DNA of 64,000 nt from Mobula hypostoma (Eukaryota), in contig NC_086107.1 in the NCBI RefSeq assembly GCF_963921235.1, positions 108,998,001 through 109,062,000 of the forward strand. The letters are read 5' to 3'. Within the stretch, counting starts at the first letter, position 1, and each line of letters starts with the position of its first letter. A program made the position numbers and the translations under genes. Shown piece after piece: positions 333-44,517 of this stretch. The notes beneath the pieces were generated by a model, which saw only the letters and a list, made by a program, of their open reading frames with translations, was not told the DNA's origin and made no database searches.

Positions 333-1105
333 AAGATGGCGCCTGAGTACAATGCTCCTGCAGTTGCCATCTTCTGGATAGATCATGAAACCATCTTTTT
401 CACTTCTCTTATGTCTTTTACATTTGTTTTTCTTCTTAAATGTGATTCTGGAACTGCTGGAGCCTGTGATTTGCAGCTTGGAGATTGTTTGGGTGTTTCA
501 GCACTCTGCAGTCTCTTAGGGGATTCTGAAAGACAGAGGTAACATGTGGGAACCTCGTGGCAATAAGACTGCGAGCTGATGTTCAACTCCATTTCACCGA
601 CTAAAGCTTCCATTGTTTGCCAATTAAAGCAAATGAGGGAGATTGAAATGCTGGCTCCCTGCTGTTCTATTGCTGGTGAGATCACTCTGCTGCCAATGTG
701 GGGAAACTTCCCTTTTATTGCTGGGGGGTTCACTCTGCTCCTGGAGAGGGGAGACTGCACTTTTATTGCTGGTGAGACCGCTCTGCTACGGAAAGGGAGA
801 ATGTCGTCCAGGTTTTCTGCATTTTGGATGTGGACTTGGACTGTAGACTTTTATTCAGTCTTATGGTATTTTTTAACATTTTGTATTTTTCACTCGACCT
901 TTCTTGTTTTTTTATGTGCAGAGCAAGGGGATTTGTGGGTCGATGTGTGTGTTCTGTTTTTGTTTGTTTTTTGTATCGGGAGGAAGTGCTTGGGAGTTGA
1001 CGGTCGTGCTGTCGTTCTTTTATCTATTTTATTCTTGTGGCTATCTGGAGAAGAAGAATTTCAGAGTTGTACACTTTGATAATAAATGAACCTTTGAACC
1101 TTTGT
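333..1105 (+). mobile_element. Non-autonomous non-LTR retroelement with a Rex1-like 3' tail
   Basis: Starts AAGATGGCG, which can pair with gccatctt just downstream. T-rich 3' part ends ...tttgataataaatgaacctttgaacctttg, the same tail type as at 23930-24002 and 36390-36463. No coding homology recognised. Confidence 0.5.
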
Positions 1106-1149
1106 ACCCTCTCCAACACCTTTATAGTGTGGTGACATAGAGATCCCAC

Positions 1150-1862
1150 TCGAGGTGAACTCCTTGTGGTCGGAGCCAGAGGCACATATCAATGTAGTCA
1201 TAAAGAAGGCAAGACAGCGGCTATACTTCATTAGGAGTTTGAAGAGATTTGGCACGTCAACAAATACACTCAAAAACTTCTATTGATGTACCGTGGAGAG
1301 TATTCTGACAGGCTGCATCACTGTCTGGTATGGTGGGGGGGGGGTGGTGGTGTGGTGCTACTGCACAGGACTGAAAGAAGCTGCAGAGGGTTGTAAGTTT
1401 AGTCAGCTCCATCTTAGGTACTAGCCTATAAAGTACCCAGGACATCTTCAGGGAGCGGTGTCTCAGAAAGGCAGCGTCCATTATTAAGGACCCTCCAGCA
1501 TCAAGGGCATGCCCTTTTTTCACTGTTGCCATCAGGAAGGAGGTACAGAAGCCTGAAGGCACACACTCAGCGATTCAGGAACAGCTTCTTCCCCTCTGCC
1601 ATATGATTTCTGAATGGGCATTGAACCCATGAACACTACCTCACTTTTTTTAAATTTACAGTATTTTTGATTTTTGCATGTTTTTAATCTATTCAATATA
1701 CATATACTGTAATTGATTTACTTATTTATTTATTTATTATTATTATTTTTTTTTATTTTATTTCTTTTTTTTCTGTTCTAAGCTATGTATTGCATTGAAC
1801 TGCTGCTGCTAAGTTAACAAATTTCATGTCACATGCCGGTGATAGTAAACCTGATTCTGATC
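1150..1862 (+). mobile_element. Rex1/Babar LINE 3' fragment
   Basis: Translates AHINVVIKKARQRLYFIRSLKRFGTSTNTLKNFY*CTVESILTGCITVWYG, homologous to the C-terminus of the 3849-5525 element. Ends in ...aaacctgattctgat. Confidence 0.85.
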
Positions 1863-1979
1863 ATTTAAAAGAAGATCAGCTGGAATAACATCACCTTTAT
1901 TTGCCACATGTACATTGAAACATCGAAACACACAGTGACATGTGTCATTTGTGTCAAAAGCCGACACCGTCTGAGAGTT

Positions 1980-2260
1980 TTTTATTTAAAGGTACAGGGC
2001 GGAATGAGCCCTTCCGACCCTTTGAGCCCCAGCAACATCCCAACAATCTAATTTAACTGTAACCTAACCACAGGACAATCTGCAATGACCAATTAACCTA
2101 CCCAGTACATCTTTGCACTGCAGGAGGAAACCGGAAAACTCACTCATTCCACCGGGGAGGACTTACGGAGATTCCTTATGGAATGGCGCCGGAATTGAAC
2201 TCTGAACTCCAAAACTCCCCGAGCTGTAATATTGCCGCGCTAACCACTGCACTGCCGTGA
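1980..2260 (-). mobile_element. tRNA-derived V-SINE (HE1-like)
   Basis: Reverse complement has an A-box-like gcagtggttagc, a B-box gttcaattcc, and the V-domain-like ggtttcctcc...aggttaattggtcattg. Confidence 0.75.
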
Positions 2261-2424
2261 GAGGAGGCCACGCAACACCCACACCAGGACCACCACACTC
2301 AAAAATAGTTACTTTCCCCAAGCAGTAAGGCTGATCAGCACCTCCAACGCTAACAATCTGTGGCGGCAGAGGGATAGTGTTTGATGCAGGGACTCAACCC
2401 GAGATGTCTATCACTGTATTTCTT

Positions 2425-2682
2425 ACTTAGAGATACACAACAGAATAGACCCTTCCAGCCAGCAACCCCAGACAATGACTGATTTAACCCTGACCCAGTC
2501 ACAGGACAATTTACAATGAACAATTAACTTAACCCGTATGTCTTTGGACTGTGAGAGGAAACTGGAGCACCCATGGAAAACCCACGCGTTTCACAGGGAG
2601 GATGCACAGGGACTCCTTACAAAGGACACCGGAAATAAACTCTGAACTGTAACAGTGTTGTGCTAACCACTAGGCTACTGTC
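2425..2682 (-). mobile_element. V-SINE copy
   Basis: Same motifs as 1980-2260 (caattaac...tctttggactgtgagaggaaactggagcaccc...gctaaccacta). Confidence 0.7.
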
Positions 2683-2852
2683 GAACACGAGATGTGCTCG
2701 GGACCATGTGTCACCAGGGTTCCAGCACCAAAGTAGCATGCCCACAATTTACGAACCTTTCTGGAACGTGTGAGGAAAGCAGCTCCTCAGGAAGAAGACA
2801 GGACTCCAGACAGAGCTAACACCTGATTTACCGAAACCTTGGCTGTCATGTT

Positions 2853-2945
2853 TAAGCAACACACATCAAAGTTGCTGGTGAACGCAGCAGGCCAGGCAGC
2901 ATCTATAGGAAGAGGCGCAGTCGACGTTTCAGGCCGAGACCCTTT
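2853..2945 (-). mobile_element. Penelope pLTR fragment (truncated hammerhead half)
   Basis: cagtcgacgtttcaggccgagaccctt and the flanking sequence are the reverse complement of the pLTR at 32255-32390. The CUGANGA half is missing. Confidence 0.8.
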
Positions 2946-3114
2946 AAGCACGCCCCAATTGGCATGTTTGGGTGAAAGTAGCTCTTGACGCCAGGTTTAG
3001 CTGTCATTAATGCAAACTGTAGTGGCTGCGTCAACCACCGTTGGAGGGCAGGCCACTGGAGAAAATGGTGTGGCCTTGGCGGGGTGGAGGGCTGGGGAGG
3101 GAGGGGGTAAGATT

Positions 3115-3116
<2 letters not shown>

Positions 3117-3151
<35 letters not shown>

Positions 3152-3275
3152 AGGGAAAACGAGAGCAAGACAGAGAGAAACAGACAAACAAAGACAGACA
3201 GACAGATAGACAGATAGAGAGAGGCAGAGAGAGAGGCAGAGAGAGCAAGAGAATGAGGGACAGAGAGAAAGAGTG
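3117..3275. repeat. (TG)n microsatellite followed by a (GA/GACA)-rich tract
   Basis: Directly visible. Confidence 0.95.
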
Positions 3276-3282
3276 AAAATGT

Positions 3283-3848
3283 GGAATTGAATTTAGGAGC
3301 CGAAAGGTAAAGTTGCAGCTATATAGAACCCTGGTCAGACCCCACTTGGAGTACTGTGCTCAGTTCTGGTCACCTCACTACAGGAAGGATGTGGAAACCA
3401 TAAAAAGGGTGCAGAGGAGATTTACAAGGATGTTGCCTGGATTGGGGAGCATGCCTTAAGAAAACAGGTTGCATGAACTCGGCCTTTTCTCCTTGGAGTG
3501 GGGGAGGATGAGAGGTGACCTGATAGAGGTGTATAAGATGATGAGAGGCATTGATCATGTGGATAGTCAGAGGCTTTTTCCCAGGGCTGAAATGGTTGCC
3601 ACAAGAGGACACAGGTTTAAGGTGCTGGGGAGTAGGAACAGAGGAGATGTCAGAGGTAAGTTGTTTATGCAGAGCGTGGTGAGTGTGTGGAATGGGCTGC
3701 TGGCAACGGTGGTGGAGGCAGATACGATAGGGTCTTTTAAGAGACTTTTGGATAGGTACATGGAGCTTAGAAAAATAAAGGGCTGTGGGTAAGCTTAGTA
3801 ATTTCTAAGGTAGGGACATGTTCGGCATAGCTTTGTGGGCCGAAAGGT
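3283..3848 (+). mobile_element. CR1 LINE 3' fragment
   Basis: Encodes LQLYRTLVRPHLEYCAQFWSP...ELGLFSLEWGRMRGDLIEVYKMMRG...TRGHRFK, the CR1 ORF2 C-terminus, followed by a CR1 3' UTR. Confidence 0.92.
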
Positions 3849-5525
3849 TCTACGCAAGATTCGAACAGAAGAGGAGCATCCCACTCCCTCCAGATGAACC
3901 GGACCTGGTGGCATCGAGATTCATCATCACCGAGGAGGACCTTAGAAGGGCCTTCCTGAAGGTAAATCCAAGGAAGGCGACGGGCTCAGATGGCGTCCCA
4001 GGACGGGTTCTCCGGGCCTGTGCAAGCAAGCTAGCTGGAGTGTTTGCTGACATCTTCAACTGCTCCTTGCTTCAGTCTAAGATCCCCTCGTGTTTTGAGA
4101 AGGCAACGATAATCCCAGTGCCGAAAAAGAGCAAGGTGGCATGCCTGAATGACTATTGACCTGTGGCTCTGACATCAATTGCTATGAAGTGCTTCGAGAG
4201 ATTGGTTATGGCACACATCAACCACAGCCTACCGGTCAACCTCGACGCTTTGCAATTTGCCTATCGGAACACAGGTCAACGGCAGATGCTATCTCTCTGG
4301 CCCCACATTCCTCCTTAGAACACCTGGAGAATAAAGACGCATACGTAAGGCTCCTTTTCATTGACTACAGCTCTGCCTTTAATACCATCATTCCAAATAA
4401 ACTGATTCCCAAGCTCCGGAACCTGGGCCTTAGCACTCAGATCTTCAGCTGGATTTTCAACTTCCTCATAGACAGGACCCAGGCTGTAAAAATAGGGGAC
4501 AAGCTCTCATCTACAATCACTCTGAGCTCTGGTGCCCCACAAGGCTGTGTACTCAGCCCCTTGCTGTACTCACTGTACAGCCATGATTGTGTAGCCAAGT
4601 TTCCATCGAACTCAATATATAAGTTTGCTGATGACACAACAATTGTAGGCCATATCTCAGGTAATGATGAGTTTGAGTACGGAGAGGAAATTAAGAACCT
4701 GGTGGCATGGTGCGAAGACAATAACTTATCCCTTAATGTCAGCAAGATGAAGGAATTGGTTGTTGACTTCAGAAGAATTAGCGGACCACACGACCCAATT
4801 TACATTGGTGGTGCGCAAGTGGAACAGGTCAAAAGCTTTAAGTTCCTCGGGGTCAATATCACAATGACCTGACTTGGTCCAACCAAGCAGAGTCCACTGC
4901 CAAGAAGGCCCACCAGTGCCTTTACTTCCTGAGAAAATTAAAGGAATTTGGCCAGTCCCCTAAAACCCTCACTAATTTTTACAGATGCACTGTAGAAAGC
5001 ATTCTTCTAGGGTGCATCACAACCTGGTATGGAAGTTGTCCTGTCCAAGACCGGAAGAAGCTGCAGAAGATCGTGAACACGGCGCAGCACATCACACAAA
5101 CCAATCTTCCGTCCTTGGACTCACTTTACACCGCACGCTGTCGGAGCAGTGCTGCCAGGATAATCAAGGACACGACCCACCCAGCCAACACACTTTTCAT
5201 CCCTCTTCTCTCCGGGAGAAGGCTCAGGAGCCTGAAGGTTTGTACGGCCAGATTTTGGAACAGCTTCTTTCCAACTGTGATAAGACTGCTGAACGGATCC
5301 TGACCCGGATCTGGGCCGTACCCTCCAAATATCCGGACCTGCCTCTCGGTTTTTTTTTGCACTACCTTACTTTCCATTTTCTATTTTCTATTTATGATTT
5401 ATAAACTAAATTTTTAATATTTACTATTGATTTGTACTCCTGGGAGTGAGAAGTGCAGAATCAAATATCGCTGTGATGATTGTACATTCTAGTATCAATT
5501 GTTTGGTGACAATAACGTATAAAGT
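3849..5525 (+). mobile_element. Rex1/Babar LINE, 5'-truncated, RT region disrupted by stops/frameshifts
   Basis: ORFs 3818-4159, 4156-4872 and 5073-5303 give KATGSDGVPGRVL, PVPKK, LLFIDYSSAFNTI, GAPQGCVLSPLLYSLY, KFADDTT and FFPTVIRLLN. AT-rich 3' UTR follows. Confidence 0.93.
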
Positions 5526-38206: not shown

Positions 38207-38249
<43 letters not shown>

Positions 38250-38361: not shown

Positions 38362-38452
<91 letters not shown>

Positions 38453-38477
38453 ACACACACATACACACACACATACA

Positions 38478-38509
<32 letters not shown>

Positions 38510-38552
38510 TACACACATACACACACACACACACACACACATACACACACAC
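38184..38552. repeat. (AT)n and (CA)n microsatellites (38184-38245; 38364-38552)
   Basis: Directly visible. Confidence 0.97.
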
Positions 38553-39777
38553 AGATCCTCCAGCAGATCGCTTGCTCATTTATTTTTTATTTCGAGATAC
38601 AGTAACCAACCTTTCCTGCCCAATGAGCCCACGCTGTCCAATTACACCCAAGTGACCAGTTGTGCCTTTGGACTGTGGGAGGAAATCAGAGCACCCGGAG
38701 GAAACCCACGCGGTCACGGGCAACAGCAGGAACCGAACCCTTGTTGCTGGCGCTGAAGAGCATTGCGTGAACCACCACACCACCCGTGCCATCCCCAACA
38801 CGAGGCCTCTGATTACGAGTGGTGGGTTGGCAGCCAACTCTCTTCACAGAATGGACATTCCTCCTGATTGCTTGCAATCAGGACACGACACCACTGGGAC
38901 CAAGGCCGCTGATCCCATCCCTCCTGTGCAAGCTCTTTAAAAGGCACTTCGCATCGCCTCCCTTTCCTACCTTTCCTCTTTGAAAAATCAAGTTTCACAG
39001 CTATTAATTATCCACACTAAATCCTAGCCCTTGGACTCCCTGATGATACTGAACCTTTACCGAATTCTTGTAATGATGGCTGGGAACTTAGCCTTCAGGG
39101 AGCCTTATTCCCCAATCTTGTTAATTGGTTGCCATGGAGATGCTGCCTGCCACTGGCTTTCCCTTACACTTTGTGGATTGCTCAGACGTTCAGGCTGAGC
39201 GCAGCAAATTCCATCTGATTCCCGCTGCCCCGTGGGATACGAGCCACCGCGCTCCCGAGAGCAGCTTTCAGCGGAGTGAGCAGTTGACGCATTGAGTGCA
39301 ACATAAAGATTGATATGAACCCAATGCTCCGAGCGGCTCTGCATGCCAGACTCTGAAATCTCAGTGCGTCCCACCTTGCCCATCGATACTTGCAACGTGG
39401 CACTCGCTTTGCACTTCCCGTCACGGCCTTCCTCTCTGGAAATTAGAAATTAGAATAGCGCAGCAAAGTAGCGGCAAGCGCAATTCCTTTACAGCACCAG
39501 CGATCACCGATTGGAGCTTGATTCCCGCCGTTGTCTGTAACGAGTTTGTACGTCCTTTCCGTGACCGCGCAGGGCTTCGCCGAGTGTTCCAGCTTCCTCC
39601 CACGTTCCAAAGACATACGGGTTAGGGTTAGTAAGTTGTGGGCATGCAATGTTGGCTGCCCCCTGGGGACAATCCTCGGACTGTGTTGGTCGTTTGCACA
39701 AAATGATGCATTTCACTGTATGTTTCGATGTTTTCAAGGGTTTCAAACCGCATTCGATATCAGAGTATGTATCCAGT

Positions 39778-40026
39778 CAGTCAGTCAGTGGGTGCTGTCC
39801 CGAATCTGGGGTTGGCTGCTATGCACCTCCATCTTCCTCGATCTTGCGACAGCACCGAGTACAGCCCCTCCTCCAGTTTGTTCTTGCTGGCCGCCTTGGC
39901 ACTGCCCGCTGCCGCCCCCACCGAACTCGGCCCTTCCTTAGGCGGAGGCCTTGGGCAGGTCCAGGCACACGGTGCAGCGCCCAAGTTCATCATGTCTCTT
40001 CTAACTATGTGCATAGCATACGATTC
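39778..40026 (-). mobile_element. 5'-truncated RTE-clade LINE 3' end with a 13-bp TSD, carrying a captured gene fragment
   Basis: TSD gtatgtatccagt at 39765-39777 and 40027-40039. Minus-strand peptide HIVRRDMMNLG...QDRGRWRCIAANP and an (ACTG)n tail. Confidence 0.75.
39849..39978 (-). pseudogene. ZFTRAF1: Circularly permuted 130-bp fragment of the ZFTRAF1/CYHR1 coding sequence
   Basis: Minus strand encodes [11 protein letters not shown] first, then in another frame [31 protein letters not shown]. Joining end to start restores [22 protein letters not shown]; the vertebrate ZFTRAF1/CYHR1 motif as I recall it is [26 protein letters not shown]. Confidence 0.8.
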
Positions 40027-40582
40027 GTATGTATCCAGTACACAGCCTGAAAATCATACTCTTCACAGACATCCATGAAACAAACCCTGTAGAATGATAG
40101 AAACATCAAGTCCCCCCCTCTCCCCTCCCTTCGCACAAGCAGCAGAAAAGCATCAACCCATCTGTGTCAATAGAAACTCCAGCACCCCCCCCACCCAACC
40201 ATGCAGACAGCAGCGGAAAAGCACCAAAGAGTCATTGACCCAGAGTCCATCGGACTACAGTCCACAAACCAGCACTACCATATCTCAGACAGGTCCCTCT
40301 CACCAGCGAGGGAGATATCGCTCCTGTAACGATGAGAGCACGAGACCAGCAGCTCGCTGATCTGACTTTACAATCTTCAATATCGTTTCTCCAAGCACAC
40401 TACCCCTCCCCGCCCCCCATAAGGCTAATCTTGAATCTCTTTTTTTCAATGTTGCATTAAAATTAGGGTTGGGTGTTTATGATACAAAACCATCAGGCAA
40501 CGGAATGGGACAGGTATTTCAAAAAGGCTTTTGGACGGGTAAGTGGATAGGAAAGGCTATGAACGATATGAGCCAAGCACAC

Positions 40583-41457: not shown

Positions 41458-43833
41458 CAGCACTGTCCCTCTGACAGTGTGACACTCCCTCAGTACTGTC
41501 CCTCTGATAGTGGGGCACTCCTTCAGTGTGACGCTCCCTCGGTACCGTCCCTCCGACAGTGTGACGCTCCCTCGGTACTGTCCCTCTGATAGTGGGGCAC
41601 TCCTTCAGCACTGTCCCTCTGACAGTGAGACACTCCCTCAGTACCGTCCCTCTGATAGTGGGGCACTCCTTCAGTACTGTCCCTCTGACAGTGAGACACT
41701 CCCTCGGTACTGTCCATCTGACAGTGAGACACTCCCTCAGTACCGTCCCTCTGACAGTGTGACACTCCCTCGGTACCGTCCCTCTGACTGTGACACTCCC
41801 TCGGTACTGTCCCTTTGACAGTGTGACACTCCCTCAGTACCGTCCCTCTGATAGTGGGGCACTCCTTCAGTACTGTCCCTCTGACAGTGTGACACTCCCT
41901 CAGTACCGTCCCTCTGATAGTGGGGCACTCCTTCAGTGAGACACTCCCTCGGTACTGTCCCTCCGATAGTGTGACACTCCCTCGATACTGTCCCTCTGAC
42001 AGTGTGACACTCCCTCAGTACCGTCCCTCAGACAGTGTGACACTCCCTCAGTACTGTCCCTCCGACAGTGTGACACTCCCTCAGTACCGTCTCTCAGACA
42101 GTGTGACACTCCCTCAGTACCGTCCCTCAGACAGTGTGACACTCCCTCAGTACTGTCCCTCCCACAGTGTGACACTCCCTCAGTACCGTCTCTCAGACAG
42201 TGTGACACTCCGGCAGTACCGTCCCTCCGACAGTGTGACACTCCCTCGGTACCGTCCCTCCGACAGTGAGACACTCCCTCGGTACCGTCCCTCCGACAGT
42301 GTGACACTCCCTCGGTACCGTCCCTCCGACAGTGAGACACTCCCTCGGTACCGTCCCTCCGACAGTGTGACACTCCCTCGGTACCGTCCCTCCGACAGTG
42401 AGACACTCCCTCGGTACCGTCCCTCCGACAGTGAGACACTCCCTCGGTACCGTCCCTCCGACAGTGAGACACTCCCTCGGTACCGTCCCTCCGACAGTGA
42501 GACACTCCCTCGGTACCGTCCCTCCGACAGTGAGACACTCCCTCGGTACCGTCCCTCCGACAGTGTGACACTCCCTCGGTGCCGTCCCTCCGACAGTGTG
42601 ACACTCCCTCGGTACCGTCCCTCCGACAGTGTGACACTCCCTCGGTGCCGTCCCTCCGACAGTGAGACACTCCCTCGGTACCGTCCCTCCGACAGTGAGA
42701 CGCTCCCTCAGTACCGTCCCTCCGACAGTGTTACACTCCCTCGGTACCGTCCCTCCGACAGTGAGACGCTCCCTCAGTACCGTCCCTCCGACAGTGTTAC
42801 ACTCCCTCGGTACCGTCCCTCTGACAGTGAGACGCTCCCTCAGTACCGTCCCTCCGACAGTGAGACGCTCCCTCGGTACCGTCCCTCTGACAGTGAGACG
42901 CTCCCTCCGTACCGTCCCTCCGACAGCGTGACGCTCCCTCGGTACCGTCCCTCCGACAGTGAGACGCTCCCTCCGTACTGTCCCTCTGACAGCGTCACGC
43001 TCCCTCGGTACTGTCCCTCCGACAGTGAGACGCTCCCTCAGTACTGTCCCTCTGACAGTGTGACACTCCCTCGGTACTGTCCCTCCGATAGTGAGACACT
43101 CCCTCGGTACTGTCCCTCTGACAGTGTGACACTCCCTCGGTACTGTCCCTCCGACAGTGAGACACTCCCTCAGTACCGTCCCTCTGACAGTGTTACACTC
43201 CCTCGGTACCGTCCCTCCGACAGTGAGACACTCCCTCAGTACCGTCCCTCTGACAGTGTTACACTCCCTCGGTACCGTCCCTCTGACAGTGAGACACTCC
43301 CTCCGTACCGTCCCTCCGACAGCGTGACACTCCCTCGGTACCGTCCCTCCGACAGTGAGACACTCCCTCGGTACTGTCCCTCCGACAGTGTGACACTCCC
43401 TCGGTACCGTCCCTCTGACAGTGAGACACTCCCTCGGTACCGTCCCTCCGACAGTGAGACACTCCCTCCGTACCGTCCCTCCGACAGCGTGACACTCCCT
43501 CGGTACCGTCCCTCCGACAGTGAGACACTCCCTCGGTACCGTCCCTCTGACAGTGTGACGCTCCCTCGGTACTGTCCCTCTGACAGTGAGACGCTCCCTC
43601 AGTACTGTCCCTCCGACAGTGAGACGCTCCCTCAGTACTGTCCCTCTGACAGTGTGACACTCCCTCAGTACCGTCCCTCTGACAGTGTGACACTCCCTCA
43701 GTACTGTCCCTCCGATAGTGAGACAATCCCTCAGTACTGTCCCTCTGACAGTGTGACACTCCCTCAGTACTGTCCCTCCGACAGTGAGACACTCCCTCAG
43801 TACTGTCCCTCTGACAGTGTGACACTCCCTCAG
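41458..43833 (+). repeat. 33-bp minisatellite array A (~72 units)
   Basis: Unit approx. cagtgWgacactccctcRgtacYgtccctcYga. Gives an 11-aa periodic pseudo-ORF (SDSETLPRYRP). Confidence 0.97.
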
Positions 43834-44517
43834 TCCCACCAGCAGAAATGCTTGTCCATGTGTCTCCAAAACTTATGAATTTTTTGCCACTGATCAAGAG
43901 TTTATTGGTTTCAGTCAGTGTCATACAGAAAACTTTGCAGCAATTAAGGAAGAGAGCAAGAAACTAGATTCTAACAGGTTTGCTCTTTGAAAGAACTTAC
44001 CTGACTGCAATAAGCCAAAATACTCTCCAGAATATTACTATTCTACAATTAATGGATTTGTAGATATTGCTGGAGTTATGCAGCTTGCAAACTGGCCCTT
44101 GAGATCACCTCATCCATATTAACCAAAATCCCTACATCAGCTAATCTGATTTGCCTGCGTTTGGTCAAATCTGTCTGAGCATTTCATATCTGTCTGGCAG
44201 GAGATACAGGAACACCTTTGCCAAGGTGGTTAGACAAAAAAAAAACAGCTTCTTCTCGAGGGATGTTTTGCAGCTGAATAATGCTGCAGCCCGGCTTGCT
44301 GATGCCCTTTGAGTGTTATGGACTATAAAAGTCACTTGTATTCTGTAAACGTAGGAATTTTATTTATTTATTTATGTTTAGTTAAACGGTACTGCATTCA
44401 TTACAAATATTTTTGCATGGACCAGCGTAGCACTGCAATCTCATTGGTTTGAGCAATGGTAATACAGTTCTATCCTATTTTATTCTGTATACTTGTCCAA
44501 GTACCTTTTTAAACGTT

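Follow-up and report, generated by a model that had tools for sequence, protein, structure and literature searches.

The genome of Mobula hypostoma carries a family of about 10^3 SINE-like retroposons, all the examined members of which are built around a module of 178 nt taken from the first coding exon of the gene ZFTRAF1. The module is an exact circular permutation of its source: the two halves of the exon piece stand in swapped order, joined where the end of the piece meets its own beginning. The family ends in a tail held in common with an RTE-like LINE, and the donor gene is still present, so that the history of the module can be read against its origin. We judge, with a probability of about 0.6, that the capture took place once, at the level of RNA and at the birth of the family: a closed 178-nt RNA from ZFTRAF1 exon 1 would have been copied a single time, and the resulting chimera then amplified.

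One copy of the family lies on the minus strand of the window (the whole stretch of DNA that was analysed, 64,000 nt), where it occupies 40026-39778 with (ACTG)n at its end, as read directly (Table 1). An earlier sequence-only reading of this stretch described a 13-nt TSD, an (ACTG)n end and a GC-rich segment at 39978-39849, and all three are there in the sequence as described. As for the first four bases (ACTG) of the TSD's 5' copy, they may just as well be counted, at the 3' copy, as part of the tail repeat. The GC content of the segment is 63% in a local profile, and ZFTRAF1 coding stretches can be read within it in two different frames; its second half shares the reading frame of the LINE's C-terminus, and the ZFTRAF1 piece has no TSD around itself, both as the earlier reading had it. 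The length of 130 nt given there is right for the window copy but not for the full module of 178 nt, for 48 nt are absent from the window copy between 39926 and 39925. Positions 269-571 of a full copy (L016), used as a BLASTN query, correspond to window positions 40029-39775. The window copy is a passive fossil, a truncated and worn member of a multi-copy SINE-like family rather than a private insertion.

Table 1. Features of the retroposon copy in the window (positions of the window; full-copy and exon-1 extract numbering within the descriptions)
Feature	Positions	Strand	Basis
TSD, 5' copy, ACTGGATACATAC, 13 nt	40027..40039	-	read directly
SINE-like body remnant, 48 nt, 5'-truncated (about 272-319 of the 580-nt full copy)	39979..40026	-	BLASTN with full copy L016; alignment of 30 copies
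ZFTRAF1 piece B (exon-1 extract 437-476), downstream of piece A in the gene	39939..39978	-	BLASTN against own gene, 97.5% over 40 nt
ZFTRAF1 piece A (exon-1 extract 299-436, ..EGPSS...KLEE(R>G)LYSVL), minus 48 nt	39849..39938	-	sequence comparison with gene and full copies
RTE-like LINE-derived tail, last 22 codons ..QDR(G)RWRCIAANPRFGTAPTD, stop codon within (ACTG)n	39778..39848	-	SINE/LINE comparison
TSD, 3' copy, ACTGGATACATAC, 13 nt	39765..39777	-	read directly

The window has repeats of other kinds as well. A short telomere-like motif (CTAACC CTAACC, minus strand) lies at about 39620-39632, in the flank downstream of the element, and long (AC)n/(CA)n microsatellites lie at 38211-38245 (17.5 units) and 38364-38553 (95 units). 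A satellite array of about 70 units of 33 bp (consensus CAGTGTGACACTCCCTCGGTACCGTCCCTCCGA) extends over 41524-43834; it is C-rich, with a strong negative GC skew, and has higher-order periods of 66 and 99.

When a translated family copy was put to a search for longer proteins, the sole matches were to ZFTRAF1, from sawfish and two skates. The sawfish match has an E-value of 2.8e-10 in a search of 5.8 billion proteins, and the two sequences align pairwise at 68% over 53 residues. The assignment to ZFTRAF1, made in the earlier reading, is borne out by these matches and by the match to exon 1 of the animal's own gene. There is one ZFTRAF1 gene in the genome of Mobula hypostoma, on contig C5, with four exon matches, the first coding exon being at locus L034. 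Exon 1 ends at the donor CAG/GTACAG, and exon 2 starts after ..cag/ with TGC ACG AAT...

The comparison with the donor was made by BLASTN of a 541-nt extract of exon 1 against element copies, and positions in the exon are given below in the numbering of that extract. Extract 299-436 matches element 392-529 (132/138 identical, 96%, E 2e-61), and extract 437-476 matches element 352-391 (39/40 identical, 97.5%, E 9e-15), values at which chance may be discounted. The two pieces abut with neither gap nor overlap both in the gene (436/437) and in the element (391/392), on the same strand and in swapped order. The module is therefore an exact circular permutation, closed at 476/299 and opened at 436/437, of a piece lying within one exon, just as the sequence-only reading had predicted from a single copy. 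That reading placed the closure at 39943/39942, but the match to the exon extends 4 nt further, and the joint in the window copy is at 39939/39938 (..CCTA/AGGAAGG..). It was correct in placing both ends of the closure inside exon 1: the 3' side is 4 nt before the donor CAG/GTACAG, and the 5' side falls within codon ~49.

The earlier reading also called for a look at the donor locus for microhomology at the closure. There is none, 0 nt being shared at the circle joint (gene ..GTCTA/CCAGGT versus ..GCTGG/AGGAAG), and neither microhomology nor extra bases are to be found at any of the three joints of the module. Such joints fit end-to-end template jumping and DNA end joining equally. The content of the module is purely exonic and in sense orientation; its GC content is 71% and its ratio of observed to expected CpG is 0.91.

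In an alignment of seven sequences, the ZFTRAF1 exon of Mobula hypostoma is colinear with the orthologues of sawfish, skate, catshark and elephant fish, and the element has the lineage-specific residues and the indel pattern of the animal's own gene, which are absent from the other cartilaginous-fish orthologues. On both grounds, the donor was evidently the ZFTRAF1 gene of this same lineage.

The structure is by no means confined to the window. A search of the whole genome with the DNA of the window copy gave 1297 first-look candidates, and the best 40 of the 1297, those that were scored, span the whole GC-rich segment without exception (query <=48 to >=261). A protein search of the genome gave 102 scored matches, all of them element copies (98) or exons of ZFTRAF1 itself (4). 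The 22-mer over the closure joint has 221 exact occurrences in the genome, its reversed control 0; a diagnostic 26-mer of the module (one letter off the gene) occurs at 790 places, the gene included, if up to 2 mismatches are allowed. The sequence-only reading took the segment for a private capture into this one LINE copy, a view that does not survive the copy count: the copies are many, and the piece is family-wide.

Nor does the order of the two pieces vary. In 43/43 examined loci (41 distinct places), the 437-476 piece precedes, on the same strand, the piece ending at 436, and the BLAST boundaries are exactly 436/437 in 30 of the 43; the other 13 show 1-2 nt of CpG decay or are among five loci picked for a changed seam. 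The native colinear joint (436/437, as a 26-mer with <=2 mismatches) occurs once in 3.5 Gb, in the ZFTRAF1 gene itself, from which it follows that there are neither colinear retrocopies nor multi-turn copies. Since the joints are identical in all copies and the native joint is confined to the gene, the permutation is family-wide and evidently arose once. Two loci with one and the same 1-nt seam variant, L073 (C12:196974254) and L074 (C12:197075163), lie about 100 kb apart in opposite orientation, and their BLAST statistics are identical; both probably belong to an inverted segmental duplication and do not stand for two insertions.

Taken site by site, the majority of 28 full copies departs from the gene at 3/178 positions, and the copies differ from that majority by a mean of 4.9% (2.2% at non-CpG and 14.3% at CpG positions) in a sample skewed to well-preserved copies. 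At extract position 473, 3 nt before the closure joint, the gene has T where 23 of 26 family copies have C. On the divergence figures, one capture was followed by amplification to about 10^3 copies, and the amplification is of no great age. An insert-less form, with body end and tail start within 14 nt of each other, was found at 0 places by exact-pattern search of the genome. The body end is followed by something other than the module at 5 places, all of them small-deletion variants that still have the ZFTRAF1 piece. Searches by exact pattern could miss a precursor that is diverged or very low in copy number. The earlier proposal that the segment replaces a few host codons is not demonstrable, no insert-less form having been found in the genome with which to compare it.

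Full copies of the element are about 580 nt long and have a common 5' end. From 5' to 3', they consist of a head of about 185 nt, an A-rich linker, a body of about 130 nt, the 178-nt ZFTRAF1 module and a 74-nt tail that ends in (ACTG)n. Like SINEs, the elements are short, multi-copy (790 to ~1300) and non-autonomous, with a 3' end shared with a LINE and, in the window copy, a TSD. They are called SINE-like here because no head derived from a small RNA was found: Rfam gave no match at E<=1 for three full loci, and head or body alone gave sub-threshold noise. A small-RNA origin of head or body (tRNA, 5S, 7SL or other) was rejected on that result, and an origin of either from the ZFTRAF1 locus was rejected as well, as the four exon loci gave no match at E<=1.

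Within the head, the first ~115 nt form a near-perfect inverted repeat with a stem of about 50 bp (L016:1236-1349; likewise in other full copies). The head is predicted to fold into a hairpin with an MFE of -110 kcal/mol for 188 nt (z -7.2), and 0/200 shuffles were as good. The inverted repeat could be the product of snap-back reverse transcription, or it could be a functional 5' structure.

The 48 nt lost from the window copy coincide with the strongest hairpin predicted for the exon RNA (extract 306-365), and the deletion (39925/39926) lies between short CGAG repeats. Seven other copies (L002-L006, L008, L009) have different deletions in the same stretch of the module; these were retrieved by their likeness to the deleted window copy, so the sample is biased to deletions and gives no frequency. 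The deletions at 306-365 look like repeated skipping of the stable hairpin that the folding model predicts.

A frame of 122 codons runs over body, gene piece and tail, its length being exactly 122 in 40 of 98 element rows (counted by hand). No homologues of similar length were found for the 126-aa frame of the element. The 122-codon frame is read as neutral survival in a young family rather than as coding.

The tail also occurs apart from the module. It is preceded by something other than the last bases of the module at 83 places, and at 78 of these the bases upstream are the same GAG; these tail copies belong to a LINE with an ORF ending in ..GKRERGRQRTTWYDNVRQWTGLSYAEARKRAQDRRRWRCIAANPGFGTAPTD and a stop within the (ACTG)n tail. 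The architecture of the LINE was taken from one 4-kb copy, L088, which is degenerate and whose 5' end is inferred. In this copy, an Exo_endo_phos frame (1071-1640, E 2.7e-7) is followed directly by an RVT_1 frame (1641-3416, E 8.5e-35), there is no ORF1, and the element extends from about 1065 to 3914, or about 2.85 kb. The ORF of the LINE ends in ..GTAPTD with its TGA inside (ACTG)n, leaving essentially no 3' UTR (L043-L072, L088:3841-3914). RTE elements are described (PMC2887409) as about 3 kb long with a single ORF for AP-endonuclease and reverse transcriptase and no ORF1. A 3' UTR of extreme shortness, composed of simple repeats, is likewise a mark of this clade. By its architecture alone, the partner may be called an RTE-like LINE. 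Beside this copy, on the minus strand (L088:261-1340), lies what is left of another LINE endonuclease frame, which suggests nested or adjacent insertions.

The SINE-like element and the LINE have only their last 74 nt in common, at 89-98.6% identity, and the homology begins at the first base after the ZFTRAF1 module. Head and body show no significant similarity to the LINE by BLASTN, and their local-alignment scores are at or below the means of shuffled sequences. A LINE origin of the body was considered because of a resemblance seen by eye (YAMHLVRRD.. versus YAGHLLRGG..) and rejected, BLASTN giving nothing and the local-alignment score falling below the shuffle mean. Since only the 74-nt tail is LINE-like, and since homology starts right after the module, the module, judged from these comparisons, interrupts no LINE but sits exactly at the boundary between body and tail of a chimeric retroposon. 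The interrupted RTE 3' end seen by the sequence-only reading must accordingly be given up, for the 48 nt upstream of the segment (39979-40026) have no detectable LINE similarity. The spread of the SINE-like element is best explained by mobilisation, presumably by the RTE-like LINE acting through the common 74-nt 3' tail.

How might a permuted piece of exon have come to occupy this boundary? According to the reading preferred here, the RTE reverse transcriptase, primed on LINE RNA, would have left that template after its last 74 nt and switched onto a closed 178-nt RNA from ZFTRAF1 exon 1. There it would have made exactly one turn, stopping at the start of its own product, before it took up a further RNA, the source of the body; amplification of the chimera to about 10^3 copies would have come afterwards. 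As template, a covalent circle would do, and so would one re-nicked at 436/437 or a nicked, end-apposed structured fragment; all of them lead to the same product. A pseudo-circle closed by a stem was considered and rejected, since in none of the four extracts folded does the MFE structure pair the sequence around 299 with that around 476.

An origin at the level of RNA is favoured by the sense orientation of the module, which is what one expects of chimeras made by template switching or ligation, and by its content, which is exonic throughout and stops 4 nt short of the exon-1 donor. It is favoured also by the position of the piece, with LINE homology starting right after it and a body without LINE similarity before it, by the failure to find an insert-less precursor and by the patchwork nature of the element, composed as it is of hairpin head, A-rich linker, body, gene piece and LINE tail. 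Against this reading, the closure is off the splice sites, and the canonical back-splice joint (..CTACCAG joined to GAAGGG..) has 0 matches in the genome with <=1 mismatch. Moreover, the size, GC content, CpG ratio and 5'-exon origin of the piece fit microDNA or eccDNA, no multi-turn (rolling-circle) copy exists, and the minimum-energy folds keep positions 299 and 476 apart.

A more specific version, in which an RTE enzyme went exactly once round a small, non-spliceosomal RNA circle from the first exon and then jumped on, can be put forward only tentatively, as a possibility with the odds against it. If it is true, the family testifies from nature that tiny circles of exonic RNA can be copied by LINE enzymes, which halt at their own start instead of rolling, and that the one-turn product of an RNA circle can found a whole new SINE family.

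Perhaps the circle was one of DNA. Unlikely as we consider this, it is the weightiest of the alternatives: a 178-bp microcircle from exon 1, reopened at 436/437, would have been joined into a germline DSB of an older retroposon master copy, part of the master being deleted, and the altered master would then have been amplified. Any linearised circle yields an exact one-turn permutation, the closure is away from splice sites, the piece has no TSD of its own, and its 178 bp, 71% GC, CpG ratio of 0.91 and 5'-exon origin resemble microDNA, or nucleosome-sized germline eccDNA, as these are characterised in the literature. The closure, however, lacks microhomology, and insert-less older copies were not found. 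The scheme also needs an insertion into an active master together with a deletion ending exactly where LINE homology begins, and it makes coincidences of the sense orientation and of an exonic content that ends 4 nt from the donor. The sequence-only reading preferred eccDNA to a back-spliced circRNA. It is right to the extent that the canonical back-splice is absent, but the sense orientation, the boundary at the LINE tail and the lack of a precursor favour an RNA-level event.

The origin at the level of RNA embraces a case that is decidedly less likely still, that of a spliceosomal circRNA in which the exon-1 donor was back-spliced to a cryptic AG acceptor (CTGGAG/GAAGGG) and CC was later lost. 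The 3' end of the piece is, after all, just 4 nt from the donor, there is an AG at the 5' side of the joint, and the observed ..CTA-AG-GAAGGG differs from the predicted ..CTACCAG-GAAGGG in the missing CC only; retrocopies derived from circular RNA are known, furthermore, in mammals (PMC4897178). But the predicted joint is the very one that has no match in the genome at <=1 mismatch, an extra deletion of 2 nt is required, and first exons normally have no upstream acceptor. No ZFTRAF1 isoform entering exon 1 at the joint was seen among 120 listed proteins, seven of which were aligned.

It is very improbable that there was no circle at all and that the piece was captured in linear form from a tandemly duplicated donor allele or pseudogene, or as two separate captures that happen to abut. 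A 178-nt stretch of a tandem duplicate would likewise look permuted, but that its two ends should hit equivalent bases is a matter of chance (about 1 in 178), the genome has no duplicate and no second copy of the colinear joint, and the present ZFTRAF1 gene is single and colinear. Private capture by one LINE copy after its integration, or an error of assembly, has nothing to commend it beyond the look of a single copy and can hardly be entertained, given that hundreds of places on many contigs show the same structure and that the TSD encloses the whole element, piece included.

The family offers a clean and multiply replicated natural case of circle-derived sequence within a mobile element, and since the donor gene is still present, its joints can be read base by base. 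It bears on how SINEs are assembled, by serial template switches or ligations, and on whether small circular nucleic acids re-enter germline genomes. There are practical consequences as well. About 10^3 permuted fragments of a ZFTRAF1 exon give spurious matches to gene models, and transcripts that contain the module will mimic intra-exonic ZFTRAF1 'back-splice' reads in circular-RNA pipelines for this species.

The open-access literature that was searched has no element of this kind, nor any microDNA reintegrated into a mobile element in the germline and then amplified, a course of events that to our knowledge has not been described. MicroDNA and small eccDNA are characterised as circles of 100-400 bp, GC-rich, from 5' exons or CpG islands, with short direct-repeat microhomology at the joint. 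The module is like them in size range, GC-richness and origin from a 5'-exon CpG island and unlike them in having no microhomology at its closure. The SVA_F1 subfamily reportedly is a composite non-autonomous retroposon that acquired and spread the GC-rich exon 1 of MAST2. There, the gene piece is colinear, lies at the 5' end and was acquired by splicing, whereas here it is a permuted internal module.

In the chimeras made by L1 (U6/L1 and other RNA/L1), the 3' part of a LINE has a cellular RNA attached to it in sense orientation, TSDs enclose the chimera, and formation is ascribed to template switching or RNA ligation (bioRxiv 10.1101/2025.02.02.635956). The present element is put together in the same way, with a gene piece in the same orientation that directly abuts a LINE 3' segment and TSDs around the whole. 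Those chimeras, however, are mostly one-off, contain linear RNAs and are made by L1, while the one described here has an RTE-like partner, a permuted piece and the form of a propagating family.

There is a likeness also to the circRNA-derived pseudogenes of mouse and human, among which mouse circRFWD2 gave 33 copies, with flanking retrotransposon sequence (Dong et al. 2016, PMC4897178). Both are genomic retrocopies whose non-colinear joint betrays a circular template. In those pseudogenes, however, the joint is a back-splice junction between exons, whereas here both ends lie in one exon and the back-splice joint is absent; and here exactly one turn has become a fixed part of a SINE-like family, LINE-tailed and about 10^3 copies strong. 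The present case is set apart by an intra-exonic closure away from splice sites, one exact turn, an RTE-like partner and the fixation of the module in a family of that size.
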